From a virus: DNA of 64,000 bases. Where the stretch lies: IMG/VR virus record IMGVR_UViG_3300002461_000857; one strand, written 5' to 3'. The number at the start of each line of letters is the position of its first letter. The first letter of the stretch is position 1. The notes beneath the pieces are model-generated. The model saw only the letters and a list, made by a program, of their open reading frames with translations, had not been told where the DNA came from and made no database searches. Below are positions 23,927-50,729 of the stretch, piece after piece. A program made the translations under genes and the position numbers.

Positions 23927-24346
23927 TCAACGCCAGCCGATTCCGGGCCCGTAGTAGTTGTAGCCGTACCCCGGACCTGCGCTCCAACCGGGCCAGAGGT
24001 AGCCGGGGTAGTAGGGCGCCGTGTAGGTGGGATAGGCGGCCCAGGGGTAGCCCCATCCCGCCCATCCGTTGCCCCATCCCCATCCGCCCCAGCCCGGCCA
24101 CCAGCCCCCGCGTCCTCCGACGACAACACGGGTCCCTGGGGCCGACCCAGCTCCGTGGACGGTTCCGCCTCCACCGATGACGCGGGTCCCATTCTCCACC
24201 CTCTGCGGCGCGGGGGTCGGAGCCGAGCGGATCCTGGGAGCCGGATTGCTCTGCGCCATGGCCCTCTGGACATCGCGAAGACGGACCGCCCTGCGAGCGG
24301 CCGGTTTGAGAGAGGAGTACCTGGGGACGGCGACGAGTTCGGACAT
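23927..24346 (-). CDS. G/W/Y/P-rich low-complexity protein
   Basis: GGWWPGWGGWGWGNGWAGWGYPW... tail; AQSNP motif. Confidence 0.6.
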   Translation of the reverse strand: MSELVAVPRYSSLKPAARRAVRLRDVQRAMAQSNPAPRIRSAPTPAPQRVENGTRVIGGGGTVHGAGSAPGTRVVVGGRGGWWPGWGGWGWGNGWAGWGYPWAAYPTYTAPYYPGYLWPGWSAGPGYGYNYYGPGIGWR

Positions 24347-24364
24347 GACGATTCCCTTTCAGCT

Positions 24365-24793
24365 TCAGCGTAGCAGCTTGGCTTGCAGCCTCTTCTCTCG
24401 ACCCCATCGCTTCTCGGCGAGTCTACGAGCGGCCTCTGCTGCTTCGGCCGCTGCCTCGGGGCTATCCGGAGCCGTTGCCCACTTTCCCAACGCGTAAGCG
24501 TCAGGATCAGGTGGGGCACACTCTCGAGGTGGATTCGAGTTTCGACCCGAGACAACGCCTTGGACGACGGGTCGGATCTGCTCGAGGACTTGCTCTTTGA
24601 CCTCGGAAGGATAGGCACCCCAAGGATGCGAACCTGTCGAGGTGCTGTCGACGATCACGACTCCGTTCTGATAGACGTAGGCGTGGATGGCGTCCGCGTA
24701 GAACTTTGGTACGGAGATCCCGTAGAAGGTCCCGTACCACCACGTCTCTCCGCGGTTCCAGGTCTCTGAGATCTGTCTCCACTTGACGGTCAT
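24365..24793 (-). CDS. Hypothetical protein
   Basis: 142-aa ORF, ATGA coupled. Confidence 0.65.
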   Translation of the reverse strand: MTVKWRQISETWNRGETWWYGTFYGISVPKFYADAIHAYVYQNGVVIVDSTSTGSHPWGAYPSEVKEQVLEQIRPVVQGVVSGRNSNPPRECAPPDPDAYALGKWATAPDSPEAAAEAAEAARRLAEKRWGREKRLQAKLLR

Positions 24794-25278
24794 GATCGCC
24801 TCATCGTCGAAGGATTGACTTTCCGACGCGTCGACTTCTCTTTCGCATCAGATCCGAACTTCCAGATCTCCACTCCGATCGATCCGATCGACACCACGGT
24901 GAGTGCGGTCAGGAGCTTCTGGCCGACCGTCTTCCCTGTGAAGTAGGTGACCATGAAGAGCGCCATGTACCACGCCACGTCCCATCCGTAGTAGTTCAGG
25001 TACTGGTAGAACCAGAACTTGTGATCGGAGAGGGATTCGCGATGCGCGTCGAGCCACTTCTGCGTGTAGAAGTATCCGACGTCTGTGGGGATCGGGACTG
25101 CGTCCAAGACACCGAAGAGAAGGAACGCAGCTGGGACAGCGGTCGCCCCTTGCTCGAGTCGAAGGATCTCCTTGATCCCATCGATCCCAGACTTCAGGTT
25201 CCTTGGAGGATTCTGAGATCGCGAGGACGCATAGGCGGATGTCAGCCTCTTCGCCAGCTCTGTTTCATGAGCCGGCAC
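24790..25278 (-). CDS. Membrane protein
   Basis: Three hydrophobic segments; RSQNP motif. Confidence 0.7.
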   Translation of the reverse strand: MPAHETELAKRLTSAYASSRSQNPPRNLKSGIDGIKEILRLEQGATAVPAAFLLFGVLDAVPIPTDVGYFYTQKWLDAHRESLSDHKFWFYQYLNYYGWDVAWYMALFMVTYFTGKTVGQKLLTALTVVSIGSIGVEIWKFGSDAKEKSTRRKVNPSTMRRS

Positions 25279-25623
25279 TCACCGAGTCTCCCCACGCGAA
25301 AGCCTCTTCGCGAGGCTCTGAGGATTCGGAAGGATTGAGATCGCGCTCGATCCGATCTCATTCGGATCGCGGTAGCGCTTGGAAACACGCCGCGCGACTT
25401 CATCGAACCCTCTGGGCTTCTTTCCTACCGAGGCGACCCATACCTGGGTAGGGAACACGACCCTTGACGCAAGGCTCTCCGCCGCCGCCTCGATCTCTTC
25501 CAGAGAGGAGATCGTGACCGTCTCGTTCACCTCTTCCTTCGAGAAGAGAGCGACTTGGACTCCTCCGTCGGTGAGGTAGGCGGGCTTGGCAGAGAGTCGG
25601 ATCTGGGTCGTCTTCATGATCAT
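25279..25623 (-). CDS. Protein with the shared C-terminal tag (LAKRLSRGETR)
   Basis: 114-aa ORF; tag at the extreme C-terminus. Confidence 0.7.
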   Translation of the reverse strand: MIMKTTQIRLSAKPAYLTDGGVQVALFSKEEVNETVTISSLEEIEAAAESLASRVVFPTQVWVASVGKKPRGFDEVARRVSKRYRDPNEIGSSAISILPNPQSLAKRLSRGETR

Positions 25624-25647
25624 GCCCTCCTCGAGGGTCGATTCGGA

Positions 25648-25854
25648 TCAGCGACGGACCGACACGGGGAGGCGAGCGTAGGATCGCGCGGTCATGGGCT
25701 CGAACCCGGACTGCGACGCCCTGCTGACGGCGCGAGCACCGATCGCGGCGACGACACCTACGATGACGAGCGGCATGCCGATCGCGACTGCACCCACGAT
25801 GAGAGCGACCTTCGCACCATCGCTCATGTTCTTCTTTCGTCTGTTCTTCTTCAT
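25648..25854 (-). CDS. Small single-pass membrane protein
   Basis: Basic N-terminus followed by VALIVGAVAIGMPLVIVGVVAAIG. Confidence 0.65.
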   Translation of the reverse strand: MKKNRRKKNMSDGAKVALIVGAVAIGMPLVIVGVVAAIGARAVSRASQSGFEPMTARSYARLPVSVRR

Positions 25855-25875
25855 GATCGTTCTCTCTTCCGTTGG

Positions 25876-27348
25876 TTACTCGGCCGACGTTCCGGTGTAC
25901 TGGATCTTGATCTTGCACTGCAGGCCGGGGCTGACGTCCAGACTCGCCCGAGCCTCGTCGCCGTCCTTCTTGAATCTCGGAAGTCCGGAGTACTCGATCT
26001 CGGCATAGAGCGCGTCTCCGACCGCCTTGACTCGCTTGAGGCGAGGAAGCGGGTTCCACATCCTCTCGTCATCGTCCTGTCCGACGACGAAGTAGTAGTA
26101 GTTCGGAGACAGCGGCCAGTGCTCTTGCTTCTGAGGACACGGGTCGATGCTCGGGTCCTGGATCGTCGAGAGCGGAGCTCCGGGATTGAGGATCGAGACC
26201 TTGCCGTTGACGAACCGGATCCGAAGCTTGTACTTCGCCTTCCACCAGATCGGAACACGGAATCCCTGCCACTGGTCGTAGTCGATCGGCTGGAGTTCGT
26301 CTGCGTTTCGGATCTTGAAGCTGACCTCTCCGACGTCGTCGGGAGGGTTTCCGCTGACGTACGGATCCAGATCGCCGAAGCTCGCCGAGTCCGTTCCGAT
26401 GCAGATCCCGAATCGGACCTCGAACTCGTCACATCCTGGTTCGCCAGACATGAGCTTGATCGATGCGGTCTTCCGCTCGTACCAAGTCGCCTGAGGAAGG
26501 TACTGCGTCGATGTCTTGACGATGGGGTTGTCGAGACAGGTCGGAACCCATCCACCGGCATCCGGCTGTTCTGGGCTTCCGGCTGGTCCGACTGGCCCAT
26601 CGCCGAGATCGATCAGTCCACCTTGGGGAGGCTCTGGCTCGTCGAAGTCGATGCCTCCGATCCCCGGAAGCTCGATCTCTGGAACGATCGACGGATCGTA
26701 GTCGTCCAGGCCCATGTCCTCGATCTGCGACACGACGAGCTCGTCGACCGACTGAGCGTCGGAGGTTCCGAAGACTTTTCCTCCACCGAGGACGATCCGC
26801 CTCCCGATGAGCAAGGCCAGGCTGATGAACAGCTGCTGGATCCGAGACGAAGCATCCGGAGATGGAGGCCACTGGCAATCGGGCCACTGCATCGAGAGGA
26901 ACTTCGTCGCGATCTCGATCGGGTCGGTGAGGACCTTCGTCGTGGCAAAACCGCCGATCCCTGGCGCGAGCCCTGGACCTTGGGGTTCGTCGGGGAGCGA
27001 CTTGCTGCGATTGATCGCAGCGGTGATCATCCGGCTCAGTTGCTTCGCCTGGTTGCTCTTCGAACCGGGAACGAACGCGAAATCCTGGCAGTCGTCCAGG
27101 ACGTAGATCCCGGGTGGGGTCTCTGGAGTTGGTACGATCCCGGAGTCCGTCGACTCGAAACCCGGGTATCGAGGATCGGAGACAGAGGCACCCTCCGGAG
27201 GAGGAGGAAGGATGCTCTTGCCCTTCTTCGCAGGTCGGCGGCTGACCGCCTCGGAGATCCCGTAGCCAACGACGAGCGCGCCCAGGCCCACCGCGGCAGC
27301 GATCGCGATCTGCCGATTCGTGGGATTGTTCCGGCGTTTCCGGCTCAT
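25876..27348 (-). CDS. N-terminally anchored virion-like protein, paralog of 44013-45635
   Basis: MSRKRRNNP then a TM segment; C-terminal beta-rich domain sharing IRNAD, PR(L/F)K and YSG(L/F)P with 44013-45635. Confidence 0.75.
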   Translation of the reverse strand: MSRKRRNNPTNRQIAIAAAVGLGALVVGYGISEAVSRRPAKKGKSILPPPPEGASVSDPRYPGFESTDSGIVPTPETPPGIYVLDDCQDFAFVPGSKSNQAKQLSRMITAAINRSKSLPDEPQGPGLAPGIGGFATTKVLTDPIEIATKFLSMQWPDCQWPPSPDASSRIQQLFISLALLIGRRIVLGGGKVFGTSDAQSVDELVVSQIEDMGLDDYDPSIVPEIELPGIGGIDFDEPEPPQGGLIDLGDGPVGPAGSPEQPDAGGWVPTCLDNPIVKTSTQYLPQATWYERKTASIKLMSGEPGCDEFEVRFGICIGTDSASFGDLDPYVSGNPPDDVGEVSFKIRNADELQPIDYDQWQGFRVPIWWKAKYKLRIRFVNGKVSILNPGAPLSTIQDPSIDPCPQKQEHWPLSPNYYYFVVGQDDDERMWNPLPRLKRVKAVGDALYAEIEYSGLPRFKKDGDEARASLDVSPGLQCKIKIQYTGTSAE

Positions 27349-27402
27349 GCTTCGTCTTCGTCGTGGCACGGGCATCTCCTTGGGGATCGTTCGACCAGAG
27401 TC

Positions 27403-28272
27403 CTACGGGTTCGCGAGTCTCTTGTAGAGCTCGCGATCCCGCTCGGGGTTCGACTGGCGCGGCGGGTTCTGATGCACCGGACCGTAGTCCGGGTTCGAGG
27501 TGCGCGGTCGATTCGCGGCGAGGTACGCCGCGTTGCTTCTGCCGCCGAGGCTCGCGAACTGACCGACGTCGCGATCGCTGGCTCCGCAGTCCTTCCTCGC
27601 CTGCCTCGAGGTCTTCGTCTTCGAAGCACCGGCCACGCAGGCACCGCGCTCCGCCGACCTGGTCACCCGCGGAAGCTTCTTCGGCGCCTTGCGGTACTTC
27701 GGCTTCGGCGTCGCCTTCGGCGCAGGCTTGGTCTTCGGAGCCTTTCGCTTCGGAGCCATGGCCTTCGGGGACTTCTTGGCCTTGCGCTTCTTGCCCTTGC
27801 GCTTCGTCGCGGCCATGGCCTTCGGGGCCTTCTTGGCCTTTCGCTTCTTGCCCTTGCGCTTGGCCTTCTTCGGAGCCGGAGCCTCGGCCGTCGCCTCGGT
27901 CTCCCCGGCGAGACGCTTCTCGTAGGCCTCGTTGGTCTCGCCGACGCGACGACCCGGAACGCCGGACTTCGCCGCTGCCGACTTCGCCGACTTCTTGCCG
28001 CGCTTCTTCGACGACTTCTTCTTGGCGCGCTTCTTCTTGGCCTTCTTGGCGACCTTCTTCACCGCCTTCGCGACCTTCTTCTTGGCGCGCTTCTTCTTCG
28101 CCTTCTTGGCGACCTTCTTCACCGCCTTCGCGACCTTCTTCTTGGCGCGCTTCTTCTTCGCCTTCTTGGCGACCTTCTTCGCCGCCTTGGCGACCTTCTT
28201 CGACGACTTCTTCTTGCCGCGCTTCTTCTTGCCGCCCGCGGCCTTGGCGGAAGTCTTCTTTGCTCGTGCCAT
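27403..28272 (-). CDS. Histone H1-like K/A-rich protein (putative genome-condensing core protein)
   Basis: KKVAKAVKKVAKKAKKKR repeats; four NP motifs near the C-terminus. Confidence 0.85.
   Translation of the reverse strand: MARAKKTSAKAAGGKKKRGKKKSSKKVAKAAKKVAKKAKKKRAKKKVAKAVKKVAKKAKKKRAKKKVAKAVKKVAKKAKKKRAKKKSSKKRGKKSAKSAAAKSGVPGRRVGETNEAYEKRLAGETEATAEAPAPKKAKRKGKKRKAKKAPKAMAATKRKGKKRKAKKSPKAMAPKRKAPKTKPAPKATPKPKYRKAPKKLPRVTRSAERGACVAGASKTKTSRQARKDCGASDRDVGQFASLGGRSNAAYLAANRPRTSNPDYGPVHQNPPRQSNPERDRELYKRLANP
28018..28200. repeat. ~3 x 60-bp tandem repeat coding a 20-aa Lys/Ala unit
   Basis: The 60-nt blocks beginning at 28021, 28081 and 28141 are nearly identical. Confidence 0.9.
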
Positions 28273-28376
28273 GGTTGTCTCGTTTCTCGGTTTCCCCGCG
28301 GACGGGGTTGTCTGTGGCTTACCCTACCAAAATGTGATCCGGATGGAATCTAACCGGTGTTTTTCTTGACACCGGA

Positions 28377-28649
28377 CTAGCGGCTCTCGCCTCTGGAGAG
28401 CCGTCGGGCCAGGATCACCATCTCTGGGGCCTTCTGGCTGGCTCTCGCGATCGCGGCTGCCTTCGTCGGGAAGCTCCTCGTCTCCCCGATATCGATCCAG
28501 GCTTCCGGGTCGACGGCGTTGGCGACCTCCCGGATCGCCTCGCGCTGGGACTTGCTGCGGGCGATGTAGACCGTCTCGTTGGTTCCGTCTCCGTCCGCGT
28601 CGACAGGGATCGCGGAGTACCGGTACTGGGGGTTTCTGGACCTGGCCAT
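28377..28649 (-). CDS. Protein with the shared C-terminal tag (LARRLSRGESR)
   Basis: MARSRNP start, GAGGAG RBS, tag at the C-terminus. Confidence 0.7.
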   Translation of the reverse strand: MARSRNPQYRYSAIPVDADGDGTNETVYIARSKSQREAIREVANAVDPEAWIDIGETRSFPTKAAAIARASQKAPEMVILARRLSRGESR

Positions 28650-28653
28650 CTCC

Positions 28654-28950
28654 TCAGTCCTCCTCTTCTTCAAGAACTTCGGCAAGGCCTTCTCGCATCA
28701 GATCGAGCATCTCCTTGGTCTCTCCAAGCGCGATCTGGGCCTCCTCGACCTGGCCGGGGCTCATCATCGCCGCGTAGTGCAGGTGGGTCGCGGCTTGGCC
28801 GATGAAGAAGTGAGCTGCCATCCCTGCGGCAACCCTCTCGCATCGATCCTCGAGCATCATGGCTCTCGAGATCTGCCCTCGGGCCAAATCGATCGACTCC
28901 CTCGCCAGGCTGACGGACTCCGATGGGTCGTGAGTGTTTTTTCTCCTCAT
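28654..28950 (-). CDS. Small helical hypothetical protein
   Basis: MRRKNTHDP...; ATG overlaps the upstream TGA. Confidence 0.6.
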   Translation of the reverse strand: MRRKNTHDPSESVSLARESIDLARGQISRAMMLEDRCERVAAGMAAHFFIGQAATHLHYAAMMSPGQVEEAQIALGETKEMLDLMREGLAEVLEEEED

Positions 28951-29915
28951 CGGGATTCTCCTCGGGCGAGTCGTCTCGCGGTCGCACACTTGATAGTGTC
29001 GACGCCTTGGATCCTCCTCAGGATGCACAGCGTGGTCTCGACACATGATCGATCCTGAACCTGCTCGAGGAACAAGATCGCGTCGATGTCCGTCGTTCCA
29101 TCCGTGGACATCATGCGCTCGATGTCCTTTCGGAGAGCCAGATCATCTGTGCTGTCCCTGAGCTCCTCGATCGCCGCGTAGGTCCTCTGATCCATCGACC
29201 CCGGATTGTCGCGATGCATCTTCTTGAGCTTGTCGTAGTACTTCCGATCCTCTGCGAGGTGATCCATGGCGATCTCCATCGCGATCAGAGGATCGGTCGT
29301 GTGCTCGAGCTCGACGACGATCCCATCGATCAGTGACGATGGGCAGAAGTCTCTCGGAAACATGCCATGGGCAACTCCACCTCGGATCCTCTGCCTCCAG
29401 GTCGATCGATTTCCGTACTTTCGAACCGTATCCTCAGCGATTCGAAGACGCTTGGCGTGGCTGAGTTCCTCGCGTTCAGGGTTGGACTTCTTCTTCGACT
29501 TCTTCTTCTCTAGCTTCGCATTCCAACCATCCGTGTATCCCCACCACCACTCGTCGATATGCGATGGGTGCTTCTTCCCTGGATCCTTGGGCTTTCGCTT
29601 CTCATCGATCGCGGTTACGAATCCTCGGAAGTTCTCGTTCGAGCGAGACGTAGGCTGCCACAAGATTTTCGCCTCTAGCAGCTGCGTGTCTCGGTACGGG
29701 TCTCCGATGATCAACCGGTCCCCATCGATCGATCCGATCCCTTCGTAGTTGAGAGACGTTGGGGCTCCGTCGGTCGAGAAGATCTGATACTCGAGGTTCG
29801 GAGAGTCGTACTCATTCCCGTCCGGCCCAGTGATCGTGCGAGACACGAGGAGGTAGCCGCGGTTGATGAACAAACGCTGCGTGGTACCGGACGGGTTTTT
29901 CTTCGAAGCGTTCAT
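28947..29915 (-). CDS. Multidomain protein with a DUF5661-like domain and the shared C-terminal tag (TARRLARGESR)
   Basis: LIDGIVVELEHTTDPLIAMEIAMDHLAEDRKYYDKL; domains separated by KKNP, KSNP and RDNP. Confidence 0.7.
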   Translation of the reverse strand: MNASKKNPSGTTQRLFINRGYLLVSRTITGPDGNEYDSPNLEYQIFSTDGAPTSLNYEGIGSIDGDRLIIGDPYRDTQLLEAKILWQPTSRSNENFRGFVTAIDEKRKPKDPGKKHPSHIDEWWWGYTDGWNAKLEKKKSKKKSNPEREELSHAKRLRIAEDTVRKYGNRSTWRQRIRGGVAHGMFPRDFCPSSLIDGIVVELEHTTDPLIAMEIAMDHLAEDRKYYDKLKKMHRDNPGSMDQRTYAAIEELRDSTDDLALRKDIERMMSTDGTTDIDAILFLEQVQDRSCVETTLCILRRIQGVDTIKCATARRLARGESR

Positions 29916-29961
29916 GGACGGGGCCTTCTCGTTCCCCGTTCTACGGGGGAGGCGATCACGT

Positions 29962-30834
29962 CTATCGGCTCTGACCCGACGCGAGACGACGAGCGACGCT
30001 GTTCGACGTGGGAACGTGGCCTGGGTTCGAGATCCGGATCTCTTGAGCGATCGCATCTCCAGCGATCGATCCGATCGTCTCCTCGAGACCGTCGATGAAA
30101 CCGTCCTTGTTGCGCCGGATCTGGTCTCCCGACGCGAGCATCGCTGCTCGGACATACTTCCTGATCTCCTCCTTGAGCATCCTGGCACGCTCCTGGAGGC
30201 GCATGCTGTATGCCTCGGACTGCGAGATCTCGTCGGGATACAAAGGGTTGCGCTTGTACATCCCGTCGGACTCTTCGTAGCGATCGGATCTCTTCACAGA
30301 TCCTGATCCTGCGTGAGACGACACTGCCGTGGCGCGGCCCTTGTCCATCGTCCCATCGGAGTCCTCATACCGATCGGTACGCTTGACTCTCTGACGACCC
30401 TCGAACTGGACCGCTGGCTTCGTGTTTCGCTTCCTCATGACGTTCTTCTCCTTGGTGGCGTTTTGTTCCGATGCGCAGACGACCTGGAGGCCTTTTCCGG
30501 GCCAGTCGTGGTCGTAGCAGATCTGTGTTCCGAGAACTTCTCTAGCCGCACGATCAGCTCCATCCTCGCTCAGATCATTCCACCGCTGGTATGCGATGAC
30601 GTGGCCGACCTCATGGGCGACCAGAGCGCGGAGATGTTCTTCGTTCAGGTCAGATGTTGCTCGAGCAAATCCGAAGTCGAGATCTTCAACTCCGACAGAT
30701 GCGTATCGCCTCCGGCTGTTCCGGTGATCCTCATCCTCTCGTTCCGACCACGACACGCTGGCAGGAGACGGATCGATGCCTGCTCTGCGCAGGGCGGAGC
30801 GGATCATCCTGTCGATCTTGGCCAGCGATGCCAC
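29962..30834 (-). CDS. Zincin-like (HExxH) domain protein with the shared C-terminal tag (VARRLASGQSR)
   Basis: LRALVAHEVGHVIA...EDGADRAA. Confidence 0.7.
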   Translation of the reverse strand: MASLAKIDRMIRSALRRAGIDPSPASVSWSEREDEDHRNSRRRYASVGVEDLDFGFARATSDLNEEHLRALVAHEVGHVIAYQRWNDLSEDGADRAAREVLGTQICYDHDWPGKGLQVVCASEQNATKEKNVMRKRNTKPAVQFEGRQRVKRTDRYEDSDGTMDKGRATAVSSHAGSGSVKRSDRYEESDGMYKRNPLYPDEISQSEAYSMRLQERARMLKEEIRKYVRAAMLASGDQIRRNKDGFIDGLEETIGSIAGDAIAQEIRISNPGHVPTSNSVARRLASGQSR

Positions 30835-30837
30835 AAG

Positions 30838-31803
30838 TCACCGACTTCTGCCCTGGGATAGCCTTCGCGCGAGCTCGACGGGGTTGGATGCTCTCGTCGG
30901 AGCCACGCGAGATGGGTTCGAGTCCCGGGTGTAGTCGAACTCCGAGAGGTCATAGCCTCGCATCATCCCGAACTCGTACGGATCGATGAGCTTGAGCATG
31001 CCTCGGCCGTGGACGTTCCTTGCCTCGTCCTTGTCCAAGTTGTTCTCGATCCACTCATCCGCTCTCCAGTCCTCGAGGAAGACCTCCGAGCCTCTCTCTC
31101 CGAACATGGCCAGGTGCTCCTCGATCCTGCGGCGGATCTCGGCATCGGTCGGTCGGATCGTGAGAGCCCCGGTCGGATCCATCTTGATCTCGACCTCGAT
31201 CAGATCTTCCGGGTTCTTGCGCTTCGCCTGAGCGGTCACGGGGTACTTTGGAACCTTTCCAGTCGTCAGGTAGGCGTCGATCGACTTGATCGTCTTCTTC
31301 GCCGGTGGGAACTCCGGATCGAAACCATTCTTGATCGCCGACTTCAGGGCTTCGATGTTCTCCCTCCCTGAAGAGTCGAGCTTGCTCGACATGGAATCTT
31401 CGATCTTCTGCGCCGCTCCGAGCAGGTGGCCGAGCCGGTAGTAGTTGATCGAACCTCGCTTGGCCTCTCCGGCGCTCACACGCATGTCGTACTGCGTCAG
31501 GTTCGCAGTGAGGATGGTGAGAAATCCTCGGACGGTGGGCTCGACTGGATTGACGTTCATCGACTCTCTCCCTGCGGTCCGGATCTTCTCACGCTTGAGC
31601 GACACGATCGAGATCGGCGCAGATCCGCCACCGAAGGCGACCGATCCGGTCCGGGATAGCCCCTCGACGACCTCCGTGGAGATGTCGTCGTTCTCGTCGA
31701 GAAACTCGCCGAGCGGGCCTTCCCACTCGATTTTCCCGTCGCCGTCCTCGAGCTGGACCATCGTGCTCATGTCGAGGATCGTTCCGACCTGCGATCTCTT
31801 CAT
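30838..31803 (-). CDS. Multidomain protein with the shared C-terminal tag (LARRLSQGRSR)
   Basis: ATGA coupled; modules separated by VNP, KNP and SNP. Confidence 0.7.
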   Translation of the reverse strand: MKRSQVGTILDMSTMVQLEDGDGKIEWEGPLGEFLDENDDISTEVVEGLSRTGSVAFGGGSAPISIVSLKREKIRTAGRESMNVNPVEPTVRGFLTILTANLTQYDMRVSAGEAKRGSINYYRLGHLLGAAQKIEDSMSSKLDSSGRENIEALKSAIKNGFDPEFPPAKKTIKSIDAYLTTGKVPKYPVTAQAKRKNPEDLIEVEIKMDPTGALTIRPTDAEIRRRIEEHLAMFGERGSEVFLEDWRADEWIENNLDKDEARNVHGRGMLKLIDPYEFGMMRGYDLSEFDYTRDSNPSRVAPTRASNPVELARRLSQGRSR

Positions 31804-33218: not shown

Positions 33219-33221
33219 GAT

Positions 33222-34040: not shown

Positions 34041-34048
34041 AGATCACC

Positions 34049-34540: not shown

Positions 34541-34567
34541 TTGGAGATTCCTCTTCGAGGTGAGAGA

Positions 34568-34717: not shown

Positions 34718-34730
34718 CTGGTCCGTCCTT

Positions 34731-36599: not shown

Positions 36600-36603
36600 G
36601 GGT

Positions 36604-37443: not shown

Positions 37444-37485
37444 GGTCTTGCCTGTTCTTCGTTGAGGAGTGATGGATGTCGCAGA

Positions 37486-40017: not shown

Positions 40018-40020
40018 GGC

Positions 40021-40539: not shown

Positions 40540-40545
40540 GGATCC

Positions 40546-42370: not shown

Positions 42371-42413
42371 GGATCCTTGCTCCGGATTCTGATCTTACCG
42401 CGTTGTTGAGGAT

Positions 42414-42839: not shown

Positions 42840-44011
42840 CCGACTCCTGGAAGCGAGACGCCGTTCATGTCATAGCCCAGGGCCTGAACGGCGGGAGGGG
42901 GATTGATCGTGGACGACCCATCGGACCACAGCATGGTCTGGATCTCTGGGACCGTCTTGGCGAGCGGATTGAGGTCGAACGCCGGTGCGTAGATCAACAT
43001 CTGACTCGAGGCTCCGGTCTGACCCTGGATCCGGTTCCCCCTCAGCGTTGTCGTTCTCAGGATCGGGAGCCCGGACTGGATCCGGCTGACCATGTCGGCG
43101 TGCCTTGGGTACCAGTTCAACCCACGTCCCTCCGAGTTCAGGATGTAGAGCGGGCCCTTCGCCTTGTTCGGATTTCCACCCGGCTCATCGGGATCGTTGC
43201 CACCGGCGAAGTTCAGGTTGGTCTGCCCGTACATCAGGTCGTTGAATCCTCCGGGAGCGATGACGGCCTGACGGACCGACTTGCGAAGCGAGCGTCCGAG
43301 AGAAGCGTTCGGATCTTGACCAGACGCCGAAGCGATCTTCGGATCTTGTCCGGCCATCGACAGCGCCGATGCGAGCAACGCGATGATGAACGCATCGAAT
43401 CCGCTCGCTGGATTGAACGACACGTTCTTGTTCCCGTCGAAGAACATCCCTGGCGTGGGATAGTTCTGCGCGTGAAGTGTGGGCTCCTCCCACGGGTAGC
43501 CCGGATCGCTCGCGGTATGCACGACCCAGTCCGTGGAGATCTCGTCTTCCGGATCGGACGGTATGCCTCTCTCCGCGAAGACTTCGTTCACGATTCTCAC
43601 CGTCGTCGACCAGACGCAGTCCACGCCGCTGATGTCGAGATCGAAGAAAGGAAATGTGATACTACCACCCTTCGGATACTTTCCGAACAGAGTGTTTGCG
43701 ACCTGCGCCGATACGCTCTCTGGATCGTCATCTCCGGCATCGATGATAATCTCTGCAGCGGATCGGATCAGCTGAGGATCGATCGGTGGATAGGGACTTG
43801 GATCGCAGTCCGTGACGCTGGGAACGTCGATGACGTTGTCGTCGGAAGGCTTCTTCTTCTTGGGCTTGTTCCGACTCGCAGCCCATGCCGCAGTTCCGAT
43901 CCCGAGTGTCAGCGCAGCAGCTCCGGCAGCAAGCGCCCACGTCGTCGCGGTCGGGTTTCTTCTGCGCCCCGGTCGGCCATCTCTGAATGGGTTGATGATG
44001 CGAAGTTTCAT
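42836..44011 (-). CDS. N-terminally anchored virion-like protein
   Basis: MKLRIINP...RRRNP followed by a TM segment. Confidence 0.75.
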   Translation of the reverse strand: MKLRIINPFRDGRPGRRRNPTATTWALAAGAAALTLGIGTAAWAASRNKPKKKKPSDDNVIDVPSVTDCDPSPYPPIDPQLIRSAAEIIIDAGDDDPESVSAQVANTLFGKYPKGGSITFPFFDLDISGVDCVWSTTVRIVNEVFAERGIPSDPEDEISTDWVVHTASDPGYPWEEPTLHAQNYPTPGMFFDGNKNVSFNPASGFDAFIIALLASALSMAGQDPKIASASGQDPNASLGRSLRKSVRQAVIAPGGFNDLMYGQTNLNFAGGNDPDEPGGNPNKAKGPLYILNSEGRGLNWYPRHADMVSRIQSGLPILRTTTLRGNRIQGQTGASSQMLIYAPAFDLNPLAKTVPEIQTMLWSDGSSTINPPPAVQALGYDMNGVSLPGVG

Positions 44012-44012
44012 G

Positions 44013-45635
44013 TCACGTGCCTGTGCCGATCGCTTCCACCTTGACGTGGAGCTTGAACTGGGCCTCGGTGTTCCTGGCGTAGAACCTGTCGTCCTCGCCG
44101 CGAACGAAGATCGGAAAACCGGAGTAGGTGATCCTCAGCAAGATCTGGGAGCCGTTGTGGATCAACTTGAAGCGAGGGACCGAGTCCCACTTCCTCCACA
44201 GGTCGGGTTGGGTCTCGGATGCGACAAGGAATCCCGCGGTCGTCCTTGGCGTCGGCCAACGGTTCTCGAGGTCTGGACACACGTCGAAGTCGGGAGTGAG
44301 AAGATTCTCGGAGAGCTGCTTGGTGATCTTCGTCGTGACGTGACGCTCGAACTCCCCCTTGAACTCCCCCTTGAACGCGAGGGGAGTGACGAAGGTGTCG
44401 AAGTTCATCGGCGCCTGATCTGCGTTCCGGATCATGATCCGCATCGTCACGTCCTCGAACTGATCCTCTGGGATTCCCCAGTTTCCAGTGTTGATCCCAT
44501 TGGACAGGGCTCCGAACGGTGTGTTTCCGGGTGGCGCCTTCAAGCAGAGACCAATCCTGATCGTCCAGTCCTTTCGCAGTCGGTTCTGGCCGGTCTTGAA
44601 GTCGAACACGACGATGTCTTGCTTCGACCGTTCCGCGAACGTTCCGGTAATCGAGTACACCTTCGTTTTTGGAGCGTAGATGATCGGATCAGGATTCCAA
44701 TCCGGGATCGCGACCGAACTATCGCCTCCCGTCCCTGCGATGTCTCCAACGCTTGGAGGAGGAACGACGGACAGCTTGGTCTTCGCCTTCGCGATCGTCG
44801 ATGCGATCGTTGCTCCCGAAGGCATCAGGTAACGGTGCAACGCATGGTCGTCGTAGCCTCTCATGGCTCCGTTCCAGATCAGGTACTCCATCCTCGAGCT
44901 CAGGTCAGGAGCGAGGCCACCTTGCTGTCCGGACACGATCGCGGGACGTGCGAGGATGACGTGTCCCTTGTAGGCAAGGAACTCGCTGTCGTCAGGAATG
45001 AGATCTTGCCCGACCAGGATCGCGGCGATCCTCGAGTCGGGCGAAGCTGCGGCCAGGTACGTCTTGTTGCGAACCCGATCGATGAACGCCTGAACCTTGG
45101 TCCTGACGTCGGACAAGGTCTTTCCGTTCAGCTTGATCGAAGGAGGAAGGTCTCCCGGAAGAACTTCGATCATGACCTCCGAAGCACTCGCATCCGAGCC
45201 TTCGACCATCTCCTTGACTTTCGGAGATGCGTAGACGATCCACTTCTTGAGATCGTTGGTGACGATCTTGCTTCCGAAGTTGATCACGCCCGGTGCGGAC
45301 TCGTGCTTGACGATCGACCCTCCTACCGTGGGATCCAAGGATGGTGGATCCTTCGGCGGGATCGGAGCAGGGGGTTCGATCGGAGGACGAACCGGAGGAA
45401 TCGATCCTCCCGACGATCCGGTGAGTGGATCCCAGATCGAAGAGCCTCCAAGCCCCGTCGACTTGGCCTTCTCGATCCTCTCCTTGATCTTCTTCGCTTC
45501 GACGACAGCGATGACGGTTCCGATCGCGGCGAGTCCGATCCCAACGATCCATGCCGTATGGACCGGATTCGATTTCCTACGCTTGGCCTTGGCTCGTCGA
45601 CGAGGCGCAGGGTTGATGACTCGAAGCTTTCCCAT
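44013..45635 (-). CDS. N-terminally anchored virion-like protein, paralog of 25876-27348
   Basis: MGKLRVINP...RRKSNP followed by a TM segment; beta-rich C-terminal domain. Confidence 0.75.
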   Translation of the reverse strand: MGKLRVINPAPRRRAKAKRRKSNPVHTAWIVGIGLAAIGTVIAVVEAKKIKERIEKAKSTGLGGSSIWDPLTGSSGGSIPPVRPPIEPPAPIPPKDPPSLDPTVGGSIVKHESAPGVINFGSKIVTNDLKKWIVYASPKVKEMVEGSDASASEVMIEVLPGDLPPSIKLNGKTLSDVRTKVQAFIDRVRNKTYLAAASPDSRIAAILVGQDLIPDDSEFLAYKGHVILARPAIVSGQQGGLAPDLSSRMEYLIWNGAMRGYDDHALHRYLMPSGATIASTIAKAKTKLSVVPPPSVGDIAGTGGDSSVAIPDWNPDPIIYAPKTKVYSITGTFAERSKQDIVVFDFKTGQNRLRKDWTIRIGLCLKAPPGNTPFGALSNGINTGNWGIPEDQFEDVTMRIMIRNADQAPMNFDTFVTPLAFKGEFKGEFERHVTTKITKQLSENLLTPDFDVCPDLENRWPTPRTTAGFLVASETQPDLWRKWDSVPRFKLIHNGSQILLRITYSGFPIFVRGEDDRFYARNTEAQFKLHVKVEAIGTGT

Positions 45636-45641
45636 GGTCTG

Positions 45642-46115
45642 TCACCTTCGACGTACCGAGTTGATTCGAAGCGCCTTGCGACCCTGTCGATACATCGACA
45701 CCGGAACCTTCACCGGGCATCCGTTGGTCGTGATCGACCGGCTTGCTTGATACCCAAGGATCGTCCACAGCGTGGATACCGACGGATGATCGCCGGAGAT
45801 CGGAGGCCATGGAAAATCCGGAAACAGCTTCTTCGCCGCGCAGAGCTGAGTCTCTTCGACGATCGTCTCCGGAGTCGCACCGGTGATCATGGAGACGCAC
45901 TCGCACACGATCTGATCGATGATCTCGTAGTCCTCTGGTTCCTCAGGAAGCTTCATCGCGAAGTCAGGCTGAGGAAGACGGAGATCCGTGATCTGCGAAG
46001 GCAGCTGCTTCATGGCAGCGCTCGTGAGCTCGCGTATCTTACGATTCTGGATGACGCCGTAGCCGACGATAGCTCCGGCGACGAGGCCTCCGGCGATCCA
46101 TAGGATGGGAATCAT
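45642..46115 (-). CDS. N-terminally anchored virion-like protein
   Basis: MIPILWIAGGLVAGAIVGYG...; FPDFPWPP resembles WPDCQWPP in 25876-27348. Confidence 0.7.
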   Translation of the reverse strand: MIPILWIAGGLVAGAIVGYGVIQNRKIRELTSAAMKQLPSQITDLRLPQPDFAMKLPEEPEDYEIIDQIVCECVSMITGATPETIVEETQLCAAKKLFPDFPWPPISGDHPSVSTLWTILGYQASRSITTNGCPVKVPVSMYRQGRKALRINSVRRR

Positions 46116-46807
46116 CGACGAACTCCTCTTGATCGGAGGCAAACAGGAACAGCAGCTCCGTTGATCGTTCGGGCCCAGGACCCGTGGCGAGAACGATGGA
46201 TCGGACCTAAGATCTGCTCTCTCACGCCGTGAAGACTAGGAACCGATGGGCAGTGCCATCTTCCACTCTGATCGATGCAGCAACGATCGTCCTCGTCGTC
46301 GCAGAGGACACGACCGTCTTGGATCCTGCAGGATCGGCCCTCGACCCTCGACCTTGGATTCGCCCGAAGGCTGGGTCCACCCTTCGCGCCAAGGTATCTC
46401 GCGACAGGATCGACAGCTCCTTGCGGGGCGACGTAGATCCCGTGGTAGTCGCCGGTCATGTCACCCTCGCCCTGATCGACGCCGAGGCACTCCGTGGGGA
46501 TTCCGTACTTCTCCGTCTGCACCGCAGCCTCGTACGAGCATGCGTCTCCGCAGCTGAACGTTCCTCGATCGAGCATGGCTCGGAGTCCATACATCGAGAT
46601 CGTTGGCTCTCCGGAAGGATCGACGCGATGCCACTCGGGGACGTATTGAAGTCCAAGGTCCTCGACACGATCCGCGACCTCGAGGCCTTCGCGGAGCATC
46701 GCCGCGATCACCATGCGATTGTCTTCGCGGACGAGCTGGCACAGCCTCGTCCACTCGTCACGCATCGGTTCGCCCTCGGGCATGCACAGGTGGAGTACGA
46801 CGATCAT
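46112..46807 (-). CDS. Transglutaminase/papain-like Cys-His-Asp protein
   Basis: GTFSCGDACSY...DYHGIYV...AVDP spacing resembles transglutaminase-like triads; ATGA coupled. Confidence 0.55.
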   Translation of the reverse strand: MIVVLHLCMPEGEPMRDEWTRLCQLVREDNRMVIAAMLREGLEVADRVEDLGLQYVPEWHRVDPSGEPTISMYGLRAMLDRGTFSCGDACSYEAAVQTEKYGIPTECLGVDQGEGDMTGDYHGIYVAPQGAVDPVARYLGAKGGPSLRANPRSRVEGRSCRIQDGRVLCDDEDDRCCIDQSGRWHCPSVPSLHGVREQILGPIHRSRHGSWARTINGAAVPVCLRSRGVRR

Positions 46808-47709
46808 GTCTGAAGCATCTGGATGATGGAGATCGCGCCCTGTTGCCCGTTGTTGTTGAACGTGAATGCGTTCGCAGCACCAGGGATGGGCGTCCACGTC
46901 GTCTGCGTCCGCCCTGACGTCGTCTCCACGGTTCCAACGTTGATCGCTGGGAGTGGAAGCGCGTACTGGGCAGCGAATGGCCTCGCCATGACGTTCTGAT
47001 AAGAAGCTGATGCTGCAGCGTCGAACGGGGTCTCCGAGATGACGAACAGCTCCTTCGCACTTGCAACGATCGGAACCGAGATCGAGCTCTGGCTCTCCAA
47101 GGCGGAGAGGTAAACCGTGTCGGTCCAGTAGAGGGGCTCGAGCGGGGTGCACGATGCGACCTCACAGTGGATCCACGCGTTGATCTCGGTCGATACCTGC
47201 TGCGTTCTCGACATCCCCTCTGGAAGATCGGTGGGGATCGTCGTTATGTCAGGAACCAGAACCTGGACCGAGTTCACGTACCTCGCGGACAGGAAGGTGT
47301 TGATCCCTGCGCCGATGTCGAGATCGATGGTTCTCGTCCTGCTGTAACCGAGCGAAAGTTCGAGGCGGAGCTTCAAGATCGACGATGGAAGGCCCTGGCT
47401 CTTGGTCAGGATCTTGAGCTCGTCGAGCGTCGGGTTCACGACCGCCGGATCGTAGGTGTACTCGCGTGCCTGGACGACGAGTTGGTACCATCCTGTGGGG
47501 CTGATCCTTCCGCTATTTGGGCTGTTACCTCCGTGGATCTGACCGTGAACCCGAGGTCGATCGTTTCCCTGCGTCAGGTTGTACACCACCGACGCAGGGA
47601 CCCATCGCGTCACGAACGGAACACCCGACGCGATGACCAGGCTTCCCTGGGCGTCTGGATTCGGGTTGAACGCCGACGGATCAATCTGCGGTCGGATCGG
47701 AGGAGACAT
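46804..47709 (-). CDS. Beta-rich protein, candidate second/minor capsid protein
   Basis: 301 aa, strand-like composition, no TM, close to the capsid candidate. Confidence 0.5.
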   Translation of the reverse strand: MSPPIRPQIDPSAFNPNPDAQGSLVIASGVPFVTRWVPASVVYNLTQGNDRPRVHGQIHGGNSPNSGRISPTGWYQLVVQAREYTYDPAVVNPTLDELKILTKSQGLPSSILKLRLELSLGYSRTRTIDLDIGAGINTFLSARYVNSVQVLVPDITTIPTDLPEGMSRTQQVSTEINAWIHCEVASCTPLEPLYWTDTVYLSALESQSSISVPIVASAKELFVISETPFDAAASASYQNVMARPFAAQYALPLPAINVGTVETTSGRTQTTWTPIPGAANAFTFNNNGQQGAISIIQMLQT

Positions 47710-47712
47710 GGA

Positions 47713-49131
47713 TCAGCGCACCGCCCTGACCGAGATCGGACGACGACGACGACGAGCCTGCTGACCCGGCTGCGACGTCACGACGACTGGGGTGCAGTTG
47801 ATCGCGCCCTGCGGGTCGACGCAGCACAGGTGACTGCCGGTTCCCCAGCAGATGTAGTCGCCGATCGCTCGCGGAGCCGTGGAGATGCGACCCATGCCTC
47901 GAAGGCCCATGGCTTGGGCTCCAGCACGAAGCTGGGGTCCGACCGGAGACCAGGCGGGGTTCTCGCGGTACGACTCCATTCTCGGGACGACCGCGCGTGC
48001 CGGGTACCCCGAGCATCTTGGAATCCAGCGGTCGATCCCTTGGGGCGCGTTCGCCTGTGGAGACGCGACCACGTGGCAGAGCATAGAGCCGCCCTTCTGG
48101 TTCTTGCACTCGACGACCTTGACGGGGATCACGTTGGGCTTGACCTGATTCGCGCTCTTCCAGAAGAGCATCACGGTCTGACCATCGATCGTGGCGACGC
48201 AGTCCTGTCGAACGACACGCGTCGGATTCGATCGAGTTTTACCGCAGCATGGCGTCGCGCTCGGATCGTTCGCCATCGCCTGCGCGCACTCGTCACAGCA
48301 TGGCTCGGGGTTGGCTCGGGCCCCGCCGCATGGCGTCGCGCTCGGGTTCGCCATCATGGCGATCGCGCACTCGTCGCAGCACGGGTCGGGCTCGCAGTCG
48401 TCGCCTGGAGGTGGAGGTGGAGGTGGAGGCGGGATGCACTCGCCGGTCGCGTCGACGAGATAGCCTGGCGGACACGGGGTCTTGCTCGGAGGATCGTCGC
48501 ACAGCGGGACCGTCAGCTGCGTCGAGTCCGGAAGGGCCACGATCACCAGCTCTCCGGCCTGCGTCGGCGCCGAACCGATCAAGACGGCCGTCATGCCGTC
48601 TCTCGGATCTCCCGGGCATACCAAGACGCCGGAGATCGCGTCGTAGCAGCAGTTCTGAGGAACACCGTCTGGGCAGAGCGGAAGTCTCGTGTTCTTCTCG
48701 AACCCGTCGTTCGGATCGATGAAGCTGATCGTCACCAGGCCTCCGGCGTGGATCTCCATGATCTCGGTGACCTCAGCGTCGTGCAGCGATGACGTGGTGT
48801 CGCTGCACACCAGTCGCATGCTCTGAGCGTCGACGCAGCACTGAACTGTTCCGAGATCGGCGACGAGCGTGTCGTCTCCTGCGGTCGGACCCGGATTGGA
48901 GAACGCGATCGGACCTGCCCCGATCTTGACCAGCGTTCCCGATACGCCGCCGGGCTGTGTCGCAACGATCGAGACCAGGCGAGGAACTCCTTCGCCGTAG
49001 AGCCATCCGGACCCTGATCCTGTCGCGACCACGTATCTCGTCGTCCCGGGCGGGGCGACGTTGAAGGTCACGAGAGGAATCCACGGAGTTCGCGACGTGA
49101 TCGAGCCTTGGAAGACGGGGTTGGCGAGCAT
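47713..49131 (-). CDS. Cys/Pro-rich multidomain virion-like protein
   Basis: Many CC pairs, poly-Pro, duplicated PCCDECA.AM.AN(D)PSATPC unit, five NP motifs. Confidence 0.7.
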   Translation of the reverse strand: MLANPVFQGSITSRTPWIPLVTFNVAPPGTTRYVVATGSGSGWLYGEGVPRLVSIVATQPGGVSGTLVKIGAGPIAFSNPGPTAGDDTLVADLGTVQCCVDAQSMRLVCSDTTSSLHDAEVTEIMEIHAGGLVTISFIDPNDGFEKNTRLPLCPDGVPQNCCYDAISGVLVCPGDPRDGMTAVLIGSAPTQAGELVIVALPDSTQLTVPLCDDPPSKTPCPPGYLVDATGECIPPPPPPPPPGDDCEPDPCCDECAIAMMANPSATPCGGARANPEPCCDECAQAMANDPSATPCCGKTRSNPTRVVRQDCVATIDGQTVMLFWKSANQVKPNVIPVKVVECKNQKGGSMLCHVVASPQANAPQGIDRWIPRCSGYPARAVVPRMESYRENPAWSPVGPQLRAGAQAMGLRGMGRISTAPRAIGDYICWGTGSHLCCVDPQGAINCTPVVVTSQPGQQARRRRRPISVRAVR

Positions 49132-49165
49132 GATCGATTCCTCAGCGATGGAACTTGGGTTCTCG

Positions 49166-49205
49166 AAACAAGAGAAGGGGGCCGGGGCGTGGCCCAGCCC
49201 CCTTC
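49166..49205 (-). terminator. Rho-independent terminator downstream of the capsid candidate
   Basis: Minus strand GAAGGGGGCTGGG-CCACGC-CCCGGCCCCCTTC followed by TCTTGTTT. Confidence 0.7.
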
Positions 49206-49237
49206 GGCTCTGGCAGCTCGGTGTCCGAGCTTCTACG

Positions 49238-49972
49238 TCAGCCGACCGGGATGTTCGAGGGCGGCGGCGTCCCCGGGCCGAAGAACGGCGGGGGGAAGCA
49301 GGCGTTGGTCTCGTACTTCATGCCGACGATGATGAAGTTGAACACCGGGATCGTGCTCGCCGTGGTGATCGGCGAGAAGGTCAAGATCAGCGGCGCCCCG
49401 GTCCAGAAGCAGCCGAAGTCGAACGGGCAGAAGCACTGGTCGGTGCGGAAGAACGCCACGTCGACCGTGCTGTCCGGGCAGACGAGGTTCAGCGAGTTGA
49501 AGCCCGAGGTGATCGAGTTGAACCCGTACTCGCCCTCCTGGTTGAAGCTCCGACCGCCGATGCCCTGGTAGATCGAGCCGCCGCAGGCGACCTCGAGGGT
49601 CGTCGAACCGGTGGTCGTCGGCGTCACCACGACGCCGAGCAGCGAGCACTGCTGGACCCAGCTCCACAGGTTGTTGGTGGACGACATCGCCATCATCGGC
49701 TGGATCGGGCCGCACGAGCCCGGCATCGAGGGCCAGTTGCCGCCGCACCCGGCGAGCGCGCCCTGATCGGCACCCTGGGGCACCGGGGCGTAGCCCTGCT
49801 GCGGCACCGCCGGGGCGTAGCCGTAGCCCTGCGCGGCGAGGGCCGCCGCACCTGCGATCGCACCCGAGGGCGCGCCGCGGGGGACGAGCGCCTGGGCCTG
49901 CTGCTGCTGCTGCTGGCGGAACTGGGCGTTCACTCGCGCCTGGGCCGCACGGAGTTGCTGTGAGTTGCTCAT
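49238..49972 (-). CDS. Candidate major capsid protein (single jelly-roll-like)
   Basis: GAAGGA RBS, strongly C/G-ending codons, own terminator; ~90-aa low-complexity N-terminal arm plus ~150-aa beta-strand domain ending FNFIIVG; fold is inferred, not shown. Confidence 0.5.
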   Translation of the reverse strand: MSNSQQLRAAQARVNAQFRQQQQQQAQALVPRGAPSGAIAGAAALAAQGYGYAPAVPQQGYAPVPQGADQGALAGCGGNWPSMPGSCGPIQPMMAMSSTNNLWSWVQQCSLLGVVVTPTTTGSTTLEVACGGSIYQGIGGRSFNQEGEYGFNSITSGFNSLNLVCPDSTVDVAFFRTDQCFCPFDFGCFWTGAPLILTFSPITTASTIPVFNFIIVGMKYETNACFPPPFFGPGTPPPSNIPVG

Positions 49973-50135
49973 GGTGTTGTCCTTCGAACGGGCTCGTGTA
50001 GAGCCCACGTCTCATCTCTTCTCGTGCCCAGATCGGATCCCTCGATGCTTCTTGGGTCGATCGTACGCCGCGTCCGCTACTCGGAATCCTTCGGCGATTG
50101 CCGTCGGTGCCGCGACGTCAGGGCTGGGAACTCGA

Positions 50136-50729
50136 TCACGCCGCGGCTTCGTCGATCGCGGCCTGCTCCATCTTCTTGCGCGCGCGAGCTCGGCCCATGT
50201 TGGCGCCGATGTTCGCAAGGAACACGCCGACGTTCAGGAACGCGGCGTCGCGGAGAAGGCGGTAGCCGAAGTTGTCGGTGCCGGTCTTGGCGATCATGCC
50301 GACGGCGCCGGCCAGGATCGCGAATCCGACGGTCGTGGCGAGCGGCTTGGGGATGATCTTCAGGATCTTGCGGGGATCCTTCACGCCCTCGGGATGATCC
50401 CAAGGCGCTGGGTACTGCTCGATGTCGGCGCCGATGCTCGCCGCACCGCTCATCTCCCAGTCGGTGATCATCGCCTGGGCCTTCTCCTCGTCGCTGCCGA
50501 TCCAGTTGCCGACGCCGAGCATCATGACCGAGGCGAGGGTGCCGCTGATGATGCCCATCGTCGCCTCCTGACCGTCGCTCAGCTCTCCCTCGGCCGCGTT
50601 CTTGGTCCGCGCCAGCTTCGTCATGGCGTCCGCGGCGAGTTCCGGGTTCGAGCGCATGAGCTCGAGGGCGTCCGTCTTGTACTCCTTGGGGTTGAAGCGA
50701 CGTGCGAGGGCTGCTTTTCCGGACGACAT
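50136..50729 (-). CDS. Membrane protein immediately upstream of the capsid candidate
   Basis: RRFNP and RSNP motifs, three hydrophobic segments. Confidence 0.7.
   Translation of the reverse strand: MSSGKAALARRFNPKEYKTDALELMRSNPELAADAMTKLARTKNAAEGELSDGQEATMGIISGTLASVMMLGVGNWIGSDEEKAQAMITDWEMSGAASIGADIEQYPAPWDHPEGVKDPRKILKIIPKPLATTVGFAILAGAVGMIAKTGTDNFGYRLLRDAAFLNVGVFLANIGANMGRARARKKMEQAAIDEAAA

Follow-up and report, generated by a model that had tools for sequence, protein, structure and literature searches.

A conserved gene block in a 175-kb bacterial element as a candidate virion module of a very large tailless double jelly-roll virus

Giant eukaryotic viruses and the adenovirus-polinton group carry the morphogenesis module of the Bamfordvirae, which comprises a double jelly-roll capsid protein, a penton, an A32 ATPase, and a cysteine protease. 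To our knowledge, large genomes in this realm are confined to the eukaryotic giant viruses. Prokaryotic representatives include the Tectiviridae and STIV-type viruses (Bamfordvirae, Tectiliviricetes; capsid proteins PRD1 P3, PR772 P3, and STIV B345), and the prokaryotic double jelly-roll viruses surveyed have genomes of 7-18 kb only (PMC5894146). A second type, represented by the Sphaerolipoviridae and Matshushitaviridae (SH1, HHIV-2, P23-77; Helvetiavirae), is tailless with a protein-rich internal membrane, builds its coat from two single jelly-roll proteins with a packaging ATPase encoded next to them, and has genomes of 16-31 kb. Full-text literature searches returned no report of a prokaryotic virus of double jelly-roll build above 100 kb. 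Here, we examine a 64,000-nucleotide (nt) stretch of DNA, IMG/VR virus record IMGVR_UViG_3300002461_000857 (henceforth termed the window), in which a block of 34 genes runs from position 50729 down to 23927, all on the minus strand. A sequence-only reading had proposed that this block belongs to an unusually large tailless virus of jelly-roll type. The predicted fold of one block protein and the conservation of the block in similarly large contigs speak for this proposal, while the ATPase evidence it had also drawn upon falls away. We regard it as an evenly balanced proposition that the block is the late virion module of an uncultured, very large (~175 kb) tailless double jelly-roll bacterial virus or virus-like element with a lipid layer.

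The window is the near-identical reverse complement of positions ~924-64,900 of ENA record ERZ922818 k127_126615, an activated-carbon metagenome contig with a length of 175,068 bp. The two differ by at least one single-base change (window position 38570) and by a 60-nt offset between window positions 5004 and 45635, which marks the window as a slightly deviating variant, or alternative assembly, of one and the same element. For the gene survey described below, 159,133 bp of the contig (91%; record positions ~864 to 159,996) were assembled, with a GC content of ~60% along the whole stretch. Its size, together with the 172,068 bp of a relative (JGI Ga0075423_10000001), sets this element apart from the Tectiviridae and STIV-type viruses with their 7-18 kb (PMC5894146).

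The evidence for a capsid centers on a 301-amino-acid (aa) protein encoded at 46804-47709. An exhaustive HMMER search recovered 30 homologue clusters of 265-364 aa that align along its full length; a word-index homology search with this protein and the 540-aa protein of the block retrieved only the queries themselves. The AlphaFold2 (AF2) model, computed from 31 sequences, reached a predicted local distance difference test (pLDDT) score of 89.3 and a predicted template modelling score of 0.87. It contains eight strands and a helix in residues 20-153 and eight strands in residues 171-299, and each domain alone matches jelly-roll proteins at Z 6-8. In a Foldseek search against the PDB, the capsid proteins of STIV, phiCjT23, PRD1, and PR772 were among the top ten matches (E 4e-4 to 1e-3), and these four, with the cellular family DUF2961, were the only solved chains that aligned across both domains in VIA-align: PRD1 P3 at Z 6.4 (203 residues, root-mean-square deviation (rmsd) 6.4), STIV at Z 6.4 and 6.1, PR772 at Z 6.3, phiCjT23 at Z 5.9, and DUF2961 at Z 6.1. 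A two-jelly-roll protein of ~300 aa is thus one likeness to the Tectiviridae and STIV-type viruses, albeit a weak one at whole-chain Z 6.0-6.4. The C-terminal domain by itself has many single-domain jelly-roll matches (Z 6-8), with nanovirus and picorna-like capsid proteins at Z 6-7. In VIA-align, values of Z <8 can reflect merely a common arrangement. Since the whole-chain values stay below this safe level, we take the two-jelly-roll fold as shown at the level of the model, in agreement with the jelly roll that the sequence-only reading had anticipated for this gene, and the capsid-type arrangement as likely but unproven.

The predicted self-association of the 301-aa protein points in the same direction. 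Its homotrimer prediction scored 0.69, compared with 0.01 for the best of three controls. This score was reached by 20 of 30 proteins solved as one-chain pairs and by 1 of 23 solved as single chains, a calibration that is only rough here, as our runs used their own alignment and three copies. Contact agreement was at least 67%, partner pLDDT was at least 76, and the contacts of each copy involve two distinct faces, as a closed ring would require. Because the PDB already contains trimers of this fold, the pass may in part reflect likeness to them or their memorization by the model. The model supports homotrimer binding but does not show it; a ring trimer, as predicted here, would be a second likeness to the Tectiviridae and STIV-type viruses.

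The match to DUF2961 suggests a different reading of the fold. Cellular double jelly-roll homologues of this family are described in a published account (PMC8812541), and the match of DUF2961 to the whole 301-aa model (Z 6.1) is on a par with those of the capsid proteins. Accordingly, the contig might be a non-viral plasmid-like or integrative element, whose block builds a cell-envelope or vesicle structure and whose 301-aa protein is a cellular-type DUF2961-like homologue. We consider this unlikely. Neither the 301-aa protein nor the 244-aa protein encoded close by carries a signal peptide or membrane segment, and the predicted ring trimer, together with three features detailed below (a high-dose gene with its terminator, a hypervariable neighbour, and enzymes sharing a tag), fits a particle better.

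Conservation of the block constitutes a further line of evidence. A scan of JGI and other metagenomes for the motif FDxDIGAGVE yielded eight loci, five of which lie on contigs of 13.7, 38.4, 51.5, 80.6, and 172.1 kb with a GC content of 61-68%. All five independent contigs keep one gene order, in which a divergent large gene is followed by the genes for the 197- and 244-aa proteins, a variable large protein, and the 301-, 231-, 157-, and 391-aa proteins, and which continues with those for the 141-, 183-, 250-, and 279-aa proteins. Upstream Toprim and DUF927 primase-helicase genes are common to two of the five. By this shared gene order, the block is the conserved core of a rare lineage of large, uncultured elements and not a chance run of open reading frames (ORFs). 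Within the window, 17 of the 33 gene junctions measure 8 nt or less, and nine of these are overlaps of 1-4 nt (coordinate count corrected for the 231-aa gene). A hydropathy scan predicted a membrane segment in 15 of the 34 proteins, mostly right after a basic N-terminus with a basic-x-Asn-Pro motif. The coupled, co-directional organization and the more than a dozen membrane-anchored proteins described in the sequence-only reading are thereby corroborated. Pfam and PHROGs are blank for nearly all block proteins, with the exception of a GP88 domain, DUF5661, a GHKL ATPase domain, and a glycine zipper.

The remainder of the contig was surveyed for genes of tailed phages. Pfam results were precomputed for all called genes of record positions 9289-30911 and 49860-159996, most proteins of the stretch between 30911 and 49860 were covered by our own Pfam and PHROGs runs, and PHROGs was additionally applied to 53 large and 98 mid-size proteins (151 proteins of at least 95 aa; E 1e-4). 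No portal, HK97 capsid, tail tube, sheath, tape measure, or true terminase was detected by Pfam and PHROGs in these 159 of 175 kb, with the caveat that HK97 folds may escape sequence profiles. Matches to 'virion structural' and 'baseplate' PHROGs were all due to a Laminin_G_3 domain, and 'head maturation protease' matches were weak (E 1.5e-6) and came from a stand-alone S49/ClpP-like protease adjoining an insertion sequence. The absence of tail, portal, and terminase genes from 91% of the contig is what the sequence-only reading had expected of a tailless virus, and it is another likeness to the Tectiviridae and STIV-type viruses.

Several results weigh against a jelly-roll virion. The whole-chain matches of the 301-aa model are weak (Z ~6, rmsd 6-7 Å, template modelling (TM) score 0.22-0.25), and in BFVD it matches tail proteins as well as capsid proteins (Wip1, an asfarvirus-like capsid homologue, picornaviruses); tail fibres also contain two-domain beta-sandwich trimers. 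Searched against Pfam and PHROGs at E up to 1, none of the 31 family members matches a capsid family, and the family profile has no match among PDB sequences. The 244-aa protein yielded an unusable single-sequence AF2 model (pLDDT 40), and its ESM Atlas model reached a pLDDT of 0.33. Relatives of the 301- and 391-aa proteins were not found in IMG/VR, INPHARED, PLSDB, or GTDB species genomes, and the lineage therefore bears no independent viral sign. Finally, record positions 159,997-175,068 and 1-923 (15.9 kb) lie outside the survey for tailed-phage genes. Searches with ESM Atlas add little: the good 301-aa model found folds at a TM score of 0.32 or less, the Atlas' own 301-aa model is poor (pLDDT 0.44), and the neighbours of the Atlas models of the 301- and 244-aa proteins are uninformative.

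The stretch outside the survey, 9% of the contig, could accommodate part of another explanation, namely that the element is a large tailed phage with diverged or unseen head and tail genes, for which the block would supply accessory functions such as envelope remodelling, superinfection exclusion, fibres, or injected proteins. The tail proteins among the BFVD matches would suit such a phage, as would the S49/ClpP-like protease with its weak 'head maturation protease' matches, and the 19441 ATPase discussed below, the GP88 domain, and a RecT-like 419-aa protein are common to tailed phages. We nevertheless think this explanation quite improbable. The 151 proteins searched with PHROGs gave no portal, capsid, tail, or true terminase family, and terminases are rarely missed by such profiles. 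The stretch outside the survey begins inside a 683-aa glycosyltransferase gene, leaving an estimated ~13 kb, which is too little for the gene set of a 175-kb myovirus or siphovirus. The protease, moreover, stands alone beside its insertion sequence and not between portal- and capsid-sized genes.

DNA packaging falls on the same side of the balance as the results above. A HerA/FtsK ATPase near the block had been counted in the sequence-only reading as support for packaging of the type used by internal-membrane viruses. The corresponding 559-aa protein is encoded at 19441-21120 on the plus strand, outside the block and 26 kb from the capsid candidate, where its gene heads an operon with those for a DUF4326 protein and thymidylate kinase. 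Its N-terminal P-loop domain and coiled coil are followed by a winged-helix-like region at the C-terminus, and in some homologues this last region carries helix-turn-helix Pfam domains. Its membership of the superfamily stands, with a weak DUF87 match and with family-profile matches to solved HerA chains at E 3e-21 to 1e-13; STIV B204 reaches just 0.02 and FtsK 0.4. The packaging role does not stand. The family comprises 402 IMG/VR loci with 31-43% identity over residues 1-559, and in both terminal-repeat complete genomes that were checked and encode it, genes for a canonical TerL, portal, and HK97 capsid are also present at a distance of more than 20 kb. As the family is common in complete tailed phages with their own terminase, it provides no credible evidence of a packaging motor here, and the protein is probably a replication-type or other accessory protein. 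It matches phrog_2666, which is labelled 'terminase large subunit'. We rejected this label on account of the coexistence with canonical TerL in complete tailed phages and of a replication-block context, as in Blautia phage Montmirail (ON453898.1 8617-10164), where the gene so labelled lies between exonuclease and replication genes. As a full-length member of these tailed-phage ATPases, the 19441 protein lends no support to PRD1-type packaging. In five large IMG/VR genomes (143-221 kb) with the ATPase family, the 301-aa family was not found. Apart from the 19441 ATPase, a six-frame Walker A scan of the 159 kb returned only an AAA+ protein, a PIF1 helicase, and two DUF927 helicases, and no other HerA/FtsK-type ATPase. 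This is a further difference from the Tectiviridae and STIV-type viruses: no A32/P9-type ATPase adjoins the capsid candidate, and the latter has no sequence similarity to capsid families.

The lack of a detected packaging enzyme also favours the non-viral, plasmid-like reading, as do the integrase, transposases, and sugar-modification genes on the contig and the fact that the lineage is not classed as viral in IMG/VR. Opposed to it are the absence of conjugation, partition, and plasmid replication families from the contig's Pfam lists and of any match among 72,556 plasmids. A related reading as a conjugation or type IV secretion system was dropped, as the block lacks a transfer ATPase and the contig lacks a relaxase family. 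Elsewhere on the contig, Pfam identified TnpB, HNH, an IS4 transposase, an M23 peptidase, RelA/SpoT, a tyrosine integrase, DUF927 primase-helicases, a PIF1 helicase, an AAA+ protein, an RNA-ligase-like protein, and a small PolA fragment, in addition to the S49/ClpP-like protease, the Laminin_G_3 protein, and a sugar-modification cluster. PHROGs, applied to the 151 proteins, adds thymidylate synthase, HNH endonucleases, a methyltransferase, and a sigma factor; neither a family B polymerase nor an RNA polymerase occurs in the contig's family lists. Shine-Dalgarno-like sites precede 71% of genes, compared with a background of 23%, although the choice of start codons favoured such sites. Taken by gene content, the TnpB, M23 peptidase, RelA/SpoT, integrase, tRNAs, and thymidylate synthase and kinase point to a bacterial virus-like element.

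We now return to the block and the candidate virion genes around the 301-aa protein. Its first gene (50136-50729) encodes a 197-aa protein with two N-terminal basic-x-Asn-Pro motifs and one membrane segment, which is kept in all five relatives (32-38% identity, E 1e-13 to 1e-32). The 244-aa protein (49238-49972; homologues in five contigs at 33-44% identity) consists of an N-terminal helix, a Gln/Ala/Gly-rich linker, and a ~115-aa Cys-rich beta domain with eight invariant Cys. Its gene has the strongest codon bias of the block, with a third-position GC of 0.94 compared with 0.72-0.88 in its neighbours, and an intrinsic-terminator-like hairpin follows on its 3' side (49174-49205; 13 pairs, 10 of them G-C). 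These features agree with the short, beta-rich, highly expressed gene with its own terminator picked out by the sequence-only reading, and they make the 244-aa protein a candidate for an abundant shell protein, be it a second capsid, penton, or cement protein. Profile comparison detected no similarity between the 244- and 301-aa families, and sequence-profile searches of the PDB gave no match for the 244- and 231-aa families. Downstream, a 472-aa Cys/Pro-rich protein (47713-49131) is a candidate spike or host-recognition protein. Only its N-terminal ~130-aa domain is conserved and shared with the variable large proteins at this position in the relatives, which range from 461 to 1337 aa.

The gene following that of the 301-aa protein encodes a 231-aa protein (46112-46807) that overlaps both neighbours by 4 nt and ranks among the two best-conserved core genes. 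Both the ENA annotation and our own gene caller placed a 186-aa ORF on the plus strand here (46253-46813), which we reject as an antisense artefact, the public call being on the wrong strand: five related contigs contain intact ORFs with 43-49% identity (E 1e-54 to 1e-72) to the minus-strand ORF, whereas identity to the plus-strand ORF is only 28-35%. In the 231-aa protein, Cys86, His122, and Asp133 are invariant and the tail is rich in Cys; neither Pfam nor the PDB gave a sequence match. Its conserved residues make it a candidate cysteine protease or transglutaminase-like enzyme. Its C-terminal 60 aa contain a Cys-rich motif, C-x-x-DGRV-x-C ... C-x-VD-x-x-G-x-W-x-CP, which recurs weakly (E 0.1-0.5) in the variable spike-like proteins of two relatives (L014:5793-9806 and L020:7532-9979), the counterparts of the 472-aa protein. 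This motif may represent a shared docking module.

The next genes encode a 157-aa membrane protein conserved in all five relatives (45642-46115), a 540-aa protein with a basic N-terminus and membrane anchor (44013-45635), and a 391-aa membrane-anchored protein (42836-44011). The C-terminal 210 aa of the 540-aa protein, which was not found in the relatives' loci, are paralogous to the product of 25876-27375, and conservation within the module peaks (46-55% identity) in the C-terminal 230 aa of the 391-aa protein, which contain no known domain. Six genes at 39208-42839 encode proteins of 141, 159, 183, 257, 160, and 250 aa, among which the 141-, 183-, and 250-aa proteins are conserved in relatives. 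The 257-aa protein (40546-41319) is probably the SLT-like enzyme meant in the sequence-only reading, the weakest of its items: a membrane anchor and the motifs RRESKWD and GGLYGFLPATAL (ES and GLYGFLPATA-type) are present, and Pfam offers no SLT match at E up to 1. The stretch 34049-39194 encodes membrane proteins of 450, 119, 279, 49, and 163 aa and a 622-aa protein with a GHKL ATPase domain and a C-terminal tag. It is followed at 28377-34040 by a run of tagged proteins of 272 (glycine-zipper membrane protein), 472 (GP88), 321, 290 (HExxH), 322 (DUF5661), and 90 aa, which are candidates for packaged cargo. The 289-aa product of 27403-28272 consists of 28.7% Lys, 19.4% Ala, and 9.7% Arg; this histone H1-like composition, already remarked upon in the sequence-only reading, makes it a candidate DNA-condensing protein. 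At the end of the block (23927-27375), a 499-aa membrane-anchored paralogue of the 540-aa protein precedes proteins of 68, 114 (tagged), 162, 142, and 139 aa (Gly/Trp/Tyr-rich).

The tag, (R/K)RL(A/S)xGxSR, ends nine block proteins (window 25279-36599) and is often preceded by Asn-Pro. Outside the block, it occurs in full in at least two proteins, a RelA/SpoT enzyme (L002:19743-20501) and a 422-aa protein adjoining the PolA fragment (L010:15250-16518), with weaker variants in two further proteins. This distribution, along with the lack of a detected packaging motor, would also be compatible with a protein-delivery particle, i.e., a jelly-roll analogue of encapsulin or a gene-transfer-agent-like device loaded via the C-terminal tag. 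We hold this to be very unlikely, as the module resides in a self-replicating element with its own primase-helicases, the block includes a protein of DNA-condensing type, and tagged internal proteins fit an ordinary virion as well. A similar tag is seen on a relative's copy of a 434-aa protein (L014:415-1791).

If the block is indeed the virion module of a large tailless virus, its layout suggests how a particle might be made. Transcription would proceed leftward from ~50.8 kb, and the terminator after the second gene would ensure a high dose of the 244-aa Cys-rich beta protein, with read-through yielding the variable spike-like protein, the 301-aa double jelly-roll protein, and the Cys-His-Asp enzyme. 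Ring-like trimers of the 301-aa protein would serve as building blocks of a capsid shell, whose components the Cys-His-Asp enzyme could process or cross-link. The ~15 membrane proteins with basic N-terminal tails would enter the particle and mark a lipid layer, the Lys/Ala-rich protein would condense the DNA, and nine to twelve enzymes with the common C-terminal tag would be carried as cargo.

Compared with the known systems, such a virion would share with the Tectiviridae and STIV-type viruses a late operon rich in small membrane proteins, one of them with muralytic-type motifs, and would exceed them by the Cys-His-Asp enzyme, the histone-like protein, and the shared-tag enzymes. With the Sphaerolipoviridae and Matshushitaviridae, it would share the lack of a tail, a protein-rich internal membrane, two close beta-rich coat genes (the 244- and 301-aa candidates), and many membrane proteins in the operon, but here the 301-aa protein is itself predicted to be a double jelly roll. 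The likeness to the giant eukaryotic viruses extends to the large genome, the two-jelly-roll capsid candidate, the adjoining cysteine-protease-like gene, the basic DNA-condensing protein or proteins, and proteins packaged with the genome. Differences from them include the bacterial organization, with overlapping starts and stops, Shine-Dalgarno-like sites, TnpB, M23 peptidase, and RelA/SpoT, the small, prokaryotic size of the capsid candidate, and the absence of a detected A32 ATPase. We only tentatively extend these comparisons to the idea, which we consider somewhat doubtful, that bacterial viruses of ~170 kb combine a double jelly-roll shell and giant-virus-like features (protease-like gene, histone-like condenser, tag-loaded enzymes) without a canonical A32-type ATPase and would hence fill their particles in another mode.

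Three further loci of the contig deserve mention. Just beyond the window start, a second cluster (L002:15067-20501) encodes proteins of 284, 344, 46, 328 (M23 peptidase), 559, and 252 aa, the last being the RelA/SpoT enzyme with the C-terminal tag. In relative L014, the homologue of the 559-aa protein, which in our contig is encoded beside the M23 peptidase, directly follows the capsid candidate, and for this reason the second cluster may also be particle-associated. The 419-aa gene at 7830-9089 has a strong codon bias (third-position GC 0.88) and matches phrog_2319 over its full length, a type of protein common to T4-like Aeromonas phages and to Streptomyces and Vibrio phages. We considered it as an HK97 capsid gene and rejected this in view of the full-length phrog_2319 match and the sole annotated relative, which is labelled RecT-like. 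The sugar-modification cluster at record positions 149,993-159,996, with two epimerases/dehydratases, a DegT aminotransferase, an acetyltransferase, and the 683-aa glycosyltransferase, is unusual for a phage-like element.

Further work on the proposal can start from a capsid candidate that can be folded and has 30 homologues, from a 10-gene core that is conserved, and from a tag that may load cargo. If the proposal is true, the element would be a tailless phage of roughly ten times the size of the largest one published, and genome size in bacteria would not be bounded by the way the capsid is built. Such a virus would fill a gap in the size range of the tailless phages, which metagenomic pipelines overlook, and it would reveal prokaryotic gigantism in the PRD1-adenovirus realm, with a bearing on the origin of giant viruses.

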